Part shown: positions 8,556 through 11,522 of the stretch, one piece after another
Position numbering within the stretch: the stretch's first letter is position 1
Layout: each line of letters starts with the position of its first letter
Assembly (NCBI GenBank): GCA_029260965.1
Contig: JAJDCG010000001.1
Span: forward strand, 312,012 to 376,011
DNA: 64,000 nucleotides
Reading direction: 5' to 3'
Origin: Candidatus Levyibacteriota bacterium
Lineage (GTDB): Bacteria; Patescibacteriota; Microgenomatia; Levybacterales; UBA12049
The notes under the pieces: model-generated
The model's input: only the letters and a program-made list of their open reading frames with translations
The model's database searches: none
Told to the model about the DNA's origin: nothing
Program-made: the position numbers and the translations under genes

Positions 8556-11522
8556 TTAATAATCTTTAAAAGTTTTTTTATATTGATTTTTTGCGTTATT
8601 AAGCTTTATGTTTACTATTTTCTTTCCCGATAAGCCTTTTATTATTATTTCAGGTTTTTTTGTAACTGTTCCAATTTGTTTTATTTTATTTCCACTCATT
8701 GTCTTTTCAAATGCTTTTTTATTTTTGGGTGCGATTGATATTAGAATTCTGCCTTGGCTTTCTGAAAAAAGAGCCAGATCATTTCTTGTGATGCTACCTG
8801 GAAGATTTTCAAGTGACACATCAACACCCAGCATCCCACCAATTGATTTTTTGGCAATAGCAACAGCCAGACCGCCTTTGCCTATGCTGATACTTGATGC
8901 GATCAGTTCTTTTTGAATTGCTTTGTAGAAATCTTTGTACATTTTAAAATTCTTTTTTGTATTTACAATTGGTGTTTTCGTACTGCTGACATTCTTCATA
9001 GATAAATACTCGGATCCTCCCAGCTCATCAAAAGTTTCACCTAGGATATAAATCAAATCATTTTCCTTTTTTGCATCAAGAGAAACTGTTTTGTTTATAT
9101 CCTCAATAACACCAATTGATGAGATCAGAAGGGTTGGGGGAATTGTGACTTTTACTGGTTTGCTGTTTTTGTCAAAACCGTTGAATTCATTAAACATGCT
9201 GTCTTTTCCTGAAATGTAGGGAGTTTGATAATCAACTGCAGTGTCATAGCATGCTTTGGCTGCCATTTTTAGTTGAAAAAGCCTTTGGGGGGTATTGCTT
9301 TCTGTCCAGCAAAAATTATCAAGCAAAGCGATATAGTCAGGATTGCCACCTATTGCAACTGCATTGCGAACTGCTGTATCTATACTTGCTGCAGCCATAG
9401 CATAAGGATTTATGTCAGAGTAGTTTGGATAAAGAGCTTGAGACATCACAACGCCTCTTTGAGACTGAAGAACTGGACGGAAAACAGACGCTTCTGAGTT
9501 TACTCGACCTGATCCCTGGAGTGGCCCGAGGACTGCACCTCCGAGCACTATGTGATCGTACTGGCTAGAGATGAATTCAATGCTGGTTATGTTTAATCTT
9601 GCAAGCATCTGAGAAACAGACATGTTTAGATTCACATCTGTTGGTATTGTTGCCTGGTGCTTGTTGTTTGTTGTTTTGTCAGAAATCATCTTGCGTTGGG
9701 GTAATCCGTCGTGGAGAAATTTCATATCAATATCGAGAATTGTTTTGTTTTTGTATTTTACAATTCCTTTTTTTGAGTTGGTAAATTTACCAATTATCGT
9801 TGCTTCAACGCCTCGTCTTTTCATAAGGGAGTTAAATTTAACCCAGTTTTTTTCTGGAACAGCAAGGGTCATTCTTTCTTGAGATTCTGATATCCAGATT
9901 TCCCAAGGGTCCAGGCCCTGGTATTTGAGTGGGGTTTTTTCAAGATCGAGTACAAATCCTCCTGACTCTTTTGCCATTTCTGAAACAGAGCAAGACAGTC
10001 CTCCTGCTCCATTATCAGTTATGCTGCTGTAGAGAAGTTGATCTCTTGCTTCATTTATAATTGCGTCGCTTAATTTTTTTTGTGTGATAGGATCACCGAT
10101 CTGGACTGCTGCTGCTGGGCTTTTAGTGTTTAGGCTTTCTGAAGAAAAGGTTGCTCCGTGCACACCGTCTTTTCCGACTCTTCCACCGATCATGACTATC
10201 AGGTCACCAGGTTGAGCATTTTTGATGTGTGAGGGTTTATTTTTTATTTTTTTGGGAATAAGACCTATTGTTCCCGCAAAGACAAGCGGTTTTCCTCTGT
10301 AGCCCTCATGGAAATAAACAAATCCCTGAGGTGTTGGGATTCCTGATTGATTACCACCTGCATTTATTCCAGCAATAACCCCATCCATAATTCTGCGGGA
10401 TGAGAGCATTTTTTGAGATTTATTTTTATTTCTATATAAAGGTATGTCTATTGCAGGATCTGCAAGGCAGAATCCATAAAAATTTGCAACCGGTTTGGCT
10501 CCAAGTCCAAATCCCAGTGTGTCGCGATTGACACCTACTATTCCAGTTATTGCTCCGCCAAATGGATCAAGAGCTGATGGGCTGTTGTGTGTTTCGACTT
10601 TATGAGTGATTAAATAATTTTCATCAAACGAAATGCCACCTGAATTGTCAGTGAATACTGATACGCAAAAATCTTTCTTTCCTTTAATTTTCCTTATTTT
10701 TTCAGTTGCGCCCTTGATGTAGGTTTTATATAGCCCATTTTTAATATTGTCGATTGGATCATTAAAAATAGTGTGCTTACAATGCTCAGACCATGTTTGG
10801 GCAAGTGATTCCAGCTCTATATCAGTTGGGCTTCTTCCAAGTTTTTTAAAATATTTTTGAATGGTTTTCATGAATGAAAGATCAAGTGCTAGGGGGCCAC
10901 GAGTTGTTCCGTCCTGGTTTTGGATTCCATTTTTTCCTATTTTTGCTAGCTCTTCATCGCTGATATTTAGATTTATCTCAATGACTTTTGGTTGATGCTT
11001 TATATCTACTTTTGGAACGAATAAATCCATTCCGCCGTCTTTTAGGAATTGCTGATAGCTCTTGATGTGGGCTCTCTGGATAAGAGGATTGTAAAGAGTT
11101 AGCGATATTTCTTTTGCGTCTTTTTCAGACACTTTGCCTGTCAAAAAGGTTACTTGAGACGAGTAGACATCTTCACCGTTCCTAAATTTTGTTTTTAGAC
11201 TATCTTCAATTATTTCTTTTGCAGTATGTCCGATGTTGTCTGTAACTCCAGGTAAAAATCCAATCTCAATTGCAAAGGTGAATTTTTTAGGAGGTGTAAA
11301 TCTAGCTTTTTCTGTTTGAAAGACAACTGATTGGGTTAGGGGATTTGATAGTTTTTTCCCGATTGATATCAGTTGTTTATCATCTAGTTTTTTTGCAACA
11401 GTATAAATGTCATAGATCCAAAGATCTTTTATTTTTTTAAATCCCTGATTTTTCAGTTTATCGATACGATTTTTGGCTCTGGTATCAAAAACATTTGTAA
11501 TTATTCCAATTCTTGCTGTCAT
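8556..11522 (-). CDS. purL: FGAM synthase synthetase subunit with a fused large-PurL-type (PurS-like) N-terminal domain
   Basis: 988 aa. Residues ~200-250 ([25 protein letters not shown]) match the linker/start of the FGAM-synthetase domain in single-chain large PurL (cf. E. coli ..[25 protein letters not shown]). The ~200 aa before it correspond to the PurS-like N-domain. There is no glutaminase domain (PurQ is separate). Confidence 0.85.
   Translation of the reverse strand: [988 protein letters not shown]

Follow-up and report, generated by a model that had tools for sequence, protein, structure and literature searches.

Among the described forms of phosphoribosylformylglycinamidine (FGAM) synthase, the three-protein enzyme of Bacillus subtilis and Thermotoga maritima (PDB 3D54) is built from a PurS dimer, a small PurL (smPurL) synthetase and a separate PurQ glutaminase, while the single-chain large PurL (lgPurL) of Salmonella (1T3T) and human (PFAS, 9N9W) carries an N-domain, a linker, the synthetase and a C-terminal glutaminase on one polypeptide. 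Homologues of a further layout are named 'phosphoribosylformylglycinamidine synthase subunit PurSL' in JGI/IMG, a name that presumably follows a KEGG orthology entry. This form was described by Brown et al. 2011 (Biol Direct 6:63, PMC3261824) under the name mdPurL from Methanospirillum, Methanoculleus, Methanocella, Methanoregula and two Methanococcus species; its N-terminus is longer by about 200 residues, placed where lgPurL has its PurS-like domain. In that study purS was absent genome-wide from five of the six mdPurL archaea, at least one had purQ next to the gene, and the N-terminal extension was suspected to be PurS-like. In the literature searched, no other paper uses the term mdPurL, and 'PurSL' as a whole word returned no relevant paper.

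Here we examine the gene purSL (positions 8556–11522, minus strand) in a 64-kb stretch of contig JAJDCG010000001.1 of a Candidatus Levyibacteriota bacterium, hereafter the window. Its 988-aa product is very probably a 'medium' FGAM synthase subunit (mdPurL/PurSL), in which two PurS-like modules in tandem are joined through an lgPurL-like linker to an smPurL-type synthetase, and which would work with PurQ as a two-gene PurSL:PurQ enzyme that needs no purS. The layout falls between those of the three-gene and the one-gene enzymes, and in this sense the term 'fusion/fission intermediate' of the preliminary description holds; as history the term would be an evolutionary inference. With PurS2-smPurL-PurQ the window form has in common an smPurL-type core, a separate PurQ and two PurS-like modules per PurL; in contrast to that enzyme, a single chain holds both PurS modules and, after a linker of ~95 aa, PurL, and no free purS was seen. 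With lgPurL it shares the order of N-domain, linker and synthetase as well as the predicted arrangement, and sequence similarity to lgPurL reaches into the linker (from aa ~154–204); it differs in having no C-terminal glutaminase, in model scores far below the lgPurL cut-offs, and in low N-domain identity.

The closest relatives of known type are the methanogen mdPurL proteins, which have the same ~200-residue N-terminal extension, the same lack of a glutaminase domain and an adjacent purQ; purS is missing from five of the six archaea of Brown et al. 2011 and was not seen in the 64-kb window. Over aa 13–988, the window protein is 51–53% identical to copies from metagenome-assembled genomes (MAGs) of Methanoregula, Methanoculleus and Methanospirillum (loci L020, L023, L026, L027, L028 and L033), which belong to the same genera as those of Brown et al. 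2011 and not to the same strains. Unlike those proteins, it comes from a bacterium of the candidate phyla radiation (CPR; Patescibacteria) and is encoded in an 11-gene pur operon with a purF::purN fusion and two purP-type genes. We do not present the architecture as new: the window PurSL is a plain member of the mdPurL/PurSL family, and its layout is already known, widespread and ordinary. A protein identical to it is already present in NCBI (P0001).

Domain anatomy of the PurSL subunit

The open reading frame (ORF) starts with ATG and ends with TAA at 8556–8558, and its translation divides into an N-terminal domain of ~160 aa, a linker of ~95 aa and an smPurL-type FGAM synthetase core. Models and structures of smPurL align only from aa 219–226 of the 988, leaving ~210 N-terminal residues extra. 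An AlphaFold2 (AF2) model of the N-terminal domain, predicted from an alignment of 31 family N-domains (predicted local distance difference test, pLDDT, 85) contains two consecutive beta-alpha-beta-alpha-beta units, at aa 3–69 and 83–155, followed by a less ordered tail. The first unit corresponds to PurS-like repeat 1 (aa 1–72, positions 11307–11522, minus strand; strands at aa 3–9, 31–43 and 64–69, helices at 14–25 and 48–58), and the second to PurS-like repeat 2 (aa 81–158, positions 11049–11282, minus strand; strands at aa 83–89, 118–129 and 149–155, helices at 96–109 and 133–143). Profile–profile comparison of the two repeats with hhalign gave a probability of 94.7% (E = 5.9e-8), and the domain is therefore read as an internal duplication. 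Repeat 2 bears the most conserved motif of the family, [11 protein letters not shown]-x3-T, and in the family alignment E86, P91–N96 and T100 occupy invariant columns within it.

When the N-domain model was compared with the PDB by Foldseek, the top 18 matches were all lgPurL (Salmonella, human), with E-values of 8e-6 to 3e-4, probability 1.0 and 161–174 aligned columns, at a query-normalised template modelling score (TMq) of 0.5, a root-mean-square deviation (rmsd) of 4–6 Å and 7–12% identity. Single PurS chains (2cuw and 1vq3) ranked below lgPurL, with target-normalised scores (TMt) of 0.58 and 0.54. Searched against 1.84 billion representative proteins, the N-domain profile returned 1075, of which 122 were scanned individually with Pfam. 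PurS was the one Pfam N-domain model to match, in 55 of these 122 (best E = 3.8e-13), and in both distant relatives inspected (P0244 and P0230) the PurS match sits on repeat 2. The window copy itself is too diverged for the Pfam PurS model. Taken with the predicted fold, these results point to a tandem PurS pair with the fold of the lgPurL N-domain; what Brown et al. 2011 suspected is now backed by fold prediction, an internal-repeat test and Pfam matches in relatives.

A different identity for this domain, as an ACT-like or ferredoxin-like ligand-binding regulatory module that is not PurS in function and leaves a separate PurS still needed elsewhere, appears very improbable. It would accommodate the divergence of the window copy from the Pfam PurS model, the search of this genome for purS covered the 64-kb window, and tandem ACT-domain proteins (1u8s, 2f1f, SerB) do follow the FGAM synthases among the Foldseek matches, ranking above the single PurS chains, at E-values of about 0.01–0.1. 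These ACT matches, however, superpose with a TM-score of about 0.2 and an rmsd of about 19–21 Å, far poorer than the values for lgPurL and for single PurS chains; the Pfam matches in relatives name PurS; and purS is missing both near purSL in 80 loci and genome-wide in five of the six mdPurL archaea. The resemblance to ACT domains was accordingly rejected as a candidate on its superposition (TM about 0.2, rmsd about 20 Å).

The linker (aa 159–253, positions 10764–11048, minus strand) ends in the WSEHCKH motif, and its last ~40 aa match the Pfam domain FGAR-AT_linker (PF18072; aa 210–250, E = 2.7e-15). The string ...[25 protein letters not shown], quoted in the preliminary description of this DNA, is present in the translation at aa 229–253. 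The first part of the linker is without a counterpart in smPurL: alignments to lgPurL models begin at aa 154 and 191 and that to 1T3T at aa 204, compared with aa 219–226 for smPurL. Confidence in this region was low when the N-terminal part was modelled alone (pLDDT 58–69) and higher in the full-length model. The segment between repeat 2 and the core is conserved across the family, P170, V172, L185, L192 and G196 being examples.

The synthetase core (aa 254–988, positions 8559–10763, minus strand) consists of two AIRS/AIRS_C (PurM-like) halves, seen in Pfam as AIRS and two AIRS_C stretches. Its WSEHCKH and ETHNSPS motifs fall in invariant columns of the family alignment, as does [10 protein letters not shown]. 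The smPurL model TIGR01736 aligns to aa 219–987 with 519.7 bits, just missing its cut-off of 525.75, and NF002290, also for smPurL, scores 493.7 bits against a cut-off of 648; the lgPurL models TIGR01735, NF003672 and TIGR01857 score 234, 290 and 318 bits against cut-offs of 1123, 783 and 1057. In a phmmer search with PurSL, PurL of T. thermophilus (3VIU) reached 218.6 bits, Salmonella lgPurL (1T3T) 151 bits and the human protein 87 bits. Judged by these scores, the protein is through its core a close relative of the smPurL family and, by NCBI thresholds, not a member of it.

The full-length AF2 model was confident (pLDDT 84, predicted TM-score 0.84). In Foldseek it aligned to lgPurL with TMq 0.79–0.84 over ~1050–1080 alignment columns, and to smPurL with TMq 0.51–0.64 and TMt 0.82–0.89. 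Since a match limited to the core could reach a TMq of only ~0.78, part of the N-domain and linker would be placed as in lgPurL. The preliminary description had proposed a PurL of 988 aa whose PurS-like N-terminal domain and linker align with those of lgPurL, and both the N-domain matches and the full-length superposition bear this out. Its further label of a 'large-PurL-type' N-domain plus synthetase suits the fold and not the sequence, in which the N-domain is a tandem PurS pair and the core scores much higher as smPurL than as lgPurL. It had also left the PurS-like nature of the first 200 residues to profile searches, and the answer is divided, negative with the Pfam PurS model for the window copy and positive for nearly half of the relatives scanned.

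Distribution of the family, purQ and the search for purS

PurSL was found in at least 600 species-level genomes in a scan of one genome per species, with Patescibacteria, Methanomicrobiales, Desulfuromonadales and Spirochaetota among the groups represented. We surveyed the best 80 of these loci in species-representative genomes, about 60 of which hold complete copies, with ORFs of 970–1050 aa. The bacterial hosts among the 80 comprise Patescibacteria of many classes, Desulfuromonadales (including the cultured Citrifermentans bremense R1), Syntrophus, Spirochaetota, Verrucomicrobiota, Victivallales and SAR11-like single-cell genomes, and the archaeal hosts comprise Methanoregula, Methanoculleus, Methanospirillum, a Diapherotrites archaeon and Thaumarchaeota. 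Identity of the window protein to other Patescibacteria is 53–63% (53–58% to other classes of that phylum), and to copies from Desulfuromonadales, Victivallales and Verrucomicrobiota 38–45%.

This distribution bears directly on whether the long ORF could be an artefact, that is, a frameshift or assembly error merging one or two purS genes with a small purL. A broken copy in one Methanoregulaceae MAG (L055) does show that errors or pseudogenes occur in these genomes; nothing else positive speaks for such a merger. The frame stays open throughout, start codon and N-terminus (MTxRI...) are conserved, and, among the matches listed, the 120 best homologues have the same architecture, nearly all at 100% query coverage. 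The complete loci come from unrelated phyla, conservation extends to the linker that joins repeat 2 to the core, and a single confident model covers the whole chain. Chance and artificial merging are excluded by the E-values and the homologues of 100% coverage, and we give an artefact a negligible probability. A frameshift that merges purS with purL had been named in the preliminary description as the finding that would undo it; the same continuous ORF instead recurs in over 100 homologues of full length and in the ~60 complete loci, which span many phyla.

In L055 the PurSL gene is split into an N-domain piece (7886–8455) and an 808-aa remainder (8424–10850); a frameshift, a pseudogene or faulty assembly accounts for the break. 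Fusions were also observed: PurD::PurSL proteins of 1406–1446 aa occur in eight close relatives (P0034, P0040, P0043, P0052, P0065, P0069, P0074 and P0129), and one protein of 1274 aa, P0125, joins PurSL to PurQ through an in-frame lysine-rich linker of ~20 aa, on a single 5.8-kb metagenome contig. Gene boundaries in the PurSL family are labile.

No glutamine amidotransferase domain was found in the 988-aa PurSL by Pfam scan. The glutaminase subunit is encoded separately by purQ (7750–8553, minus strand; 267 aa), which matches GATase_5 at full length (E = 5.4e-76) and the PurQ model NF002252 with 211.7 bits, and which carries the glutaminase motifs GICNGCQ and MPHPER. It is a long form that covers the whole 260-position GATase_5 model, as the C-termini of lgPurL do. 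The junction between purSL and purQ reads TAT TAA at ATG, with a 2-nt spacer and purQ in another frame. Across the survey, a separate purQ lies directly downstream of purSL on the same strand in about 50 of 60 complete loci, in several phyla, and purQ is fused to purSL in none of the ~60.

Stand-alone purS was sought in two ways. Of 39 intergenic stop-to-stop ORFs of 55–200 aa in the window, not one matched Pfam PurS, and hidden Markov models (HMMs) of the PurS repeats found no stand-alone PurS, either in the window or in the ±8 kb around purSL in the 80 related loci. As positive controls, the repeat HMMs detected a fragment of PDB 8j3n (E = 2.4e-4) and a B. subtilis PurS sequence (E = 4.7e-3). 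The statements of the preliminary description that the glutaminase is missing from PurL and encoded next to it, and that the operon has no stand-alone purS, thus stand. Its premise that the textbook knows only the three-gene and the single-chain architectures does not, since the third layout was described as mdPurL in 2011, is named PurSL by JGI and is widespread.

Proposed working and origin of the two-gene enzyme

In the enzyme as we picture it, PurQ would hydrolyse glutamine and the ammonia would pass to the synthetase site, where the core would use ATP to activate phosphoribosylformylglycinamide (FGAR) and convert it to FGAM. The fused tandem-PurS pseudo-dimer would stand in for the free PurS2 dimer that the three-protein enzyme uses, and would hold the position of the lgPurL N-domain; it would serve as a platform that docks the separate PurQ on the synthetase, and would help to close the ammonia path. 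The complex would be PurSL:PurQ, probably 1:1, without a purS gene. The tight purSL–purQ junction fits equimolar production and such a 1:1 complex. What the analysis itself shows is the anatomy of the domains, their homology and predicted fold, the order of the genes and their distribution; a role in docking and in the channel, a 1:1 stoichiometry and an enzyme independent of PurS are most likely by analogy with T. maritima PurLSQ, the Salmonella lgPurL structures and the archaea of Brown et al. 2011.

Several points weigh against this reading. Residues 1–203 of the window protein match nothing in Pfam even at an E-value of 10, the PurS model NF005019 of NCBIfam matches aa 9–66 weakly (E = 0.006), and a profile of 31 family N-domains found one marginal PurS match among PDB sequences (8j3n, E = 0.018), both of these weak matches lying in repeat 1; PurS homology of the window N-domain is one by transitivity, through relatives, profiles and predicted fold, and not a direct match. 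Foldseek gives no target coordinates, and we infer that it is the N-domain of lgPurL that was matched. AlphaFold training included lgPurL structures, so that the docking pose is not independent evidence, and the narrow miss of the TIGR01736 cut-off counts on the same side. A purS gene may lie elsewhere in the same genome, beyond the window; one mdPurL archaeon has both mdPurL and purS (Brown et al. 2011); and the literature searched holds no biochemistry of any mdPurL.

As to history, a fusion of purS, purS and purL within the smPurL lineage is favoured by the comparison of scores, because the core scores higher with smPurL and the N-domain family with PurS. The opposite route, fission, in which an lgPurL lost its C-terminal glutaminase to a separate gene, would give the same enzyme working through another history. 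The fold and domain order are those of lgPurL minus the glutaminase, and linker residues ~154–218 align to lgPurL models only. The labile gene boundaries, with one PurSL::PurQ fusion and several PurD::PurSL fusions, and the long form of the window PurQ, which resembles lgPurL C-termini, likewise speak for fission. Against this, the smPurL scores of 519.7 and 493.7 bits, and 218.6 bits for 3VIU, far exceed those for lgPurL (234–318 bits for the models, 151 and 87 bits for the Salmonella and human proteins), and among Pfam N-domain models PurS alone recognises the N-domain family. We consider fission unlikely.

A broader evolutionary reading is tentative, and on balance we doubt it. In it, the PurSL clade would preserve in living organisms the stage that links three-protein to single-chain FGAM synthase, with rare PurSL::PurQ fusions such as P0125 repeating the last step independently, and the pur operon, with mdPurL, long PurQ and two archaeal-type purP genes, would have been exchanged with methanogenic archaea. 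The identity to methanogen copies is nearly that to other Patescibacteria classes (53–58%); this closeness and the archaeal type of the purP genes suggest that purine genes have passed between archaea and CPR bacteria.

The chief use of the result is as a correction: FGAM synthase occurs in three common gene layouts rather than two. Genomes that encode PurSL should not be scored as purS-less in pathway reconstruction, a mistake that could readily be made with small CPR genomes. The presence of two PurS modules fused in tandem lends support to the idea of one PurS dimer per PurL as the working unit, and PurSL with PurQ offers a simpler two-protein system for studies of ammonia channelling. None of these implications is new in kind.

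The pur operon and other features of the window

The 11 genes of the pur operon lie on the minus strand in the order purF::purN, purD, purSL, purQ, purP, purH, purP-like, purB, purK, purE and purC. Immediately upstream of purSL, purD (11519–12793, minus strand) carries the Pfam domains GARS_N, GARS_A and GARS_C, and its stop codon overlaps the purSL start as ATGA. The first gene of the operon (12787–14916, minus strand) encodes a 709-aa fusion of PurF (amidophosphoribosyltransferase, aa 12–463) to PurN (glycinamide ribonucleotide formyltransferase, aa 486–694), which are steps 1 and 3 of the pathway. Two PurP-type genes (DUF1246 + DUF1297), at 6730–7746 and 4138–5232 on the minus strand, stand on both sides of purH (5234–6727). 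The PurP type is an ATP-grasp, formate-dependent 5-formaminoimidazole-4-carboxamide ribonucleotide synthetase family known from archaea; the purH between them is of the canonical bifunctional type, and there is apparent redundancy with the purP-type paralogues. The operon runs to the left window edge, where purC occupies 100–1071.

No purM (aminoimidazole ribonucleotide synthetase) was found in the window by Pfam scan of the larger ORFs or by PurL-half HMMs against all window ORFs, searches of limited sensitivity that revealed no AIRS-family protein besides PurSL; purM may lie just outside the left edge. At Rfam gathering thresholds the whole 64 kb gave no match, neither a purine, ZTP or other riboswitch ahead of the pur operon (14917–15075) nor a tRNA family. 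Away from the pur operon, the window also contains purA. Further along, a run of genes on the plus strand (43311–54303) comprises five GDP-mannose dehydratase/epimerase-type ORFs, RmlD-like genes, a nucleotidyl transferase, a UDP-glucose dehydrogenase and glycosyltransferases, a content that suggests a cell-surface polysaccharide cluster.

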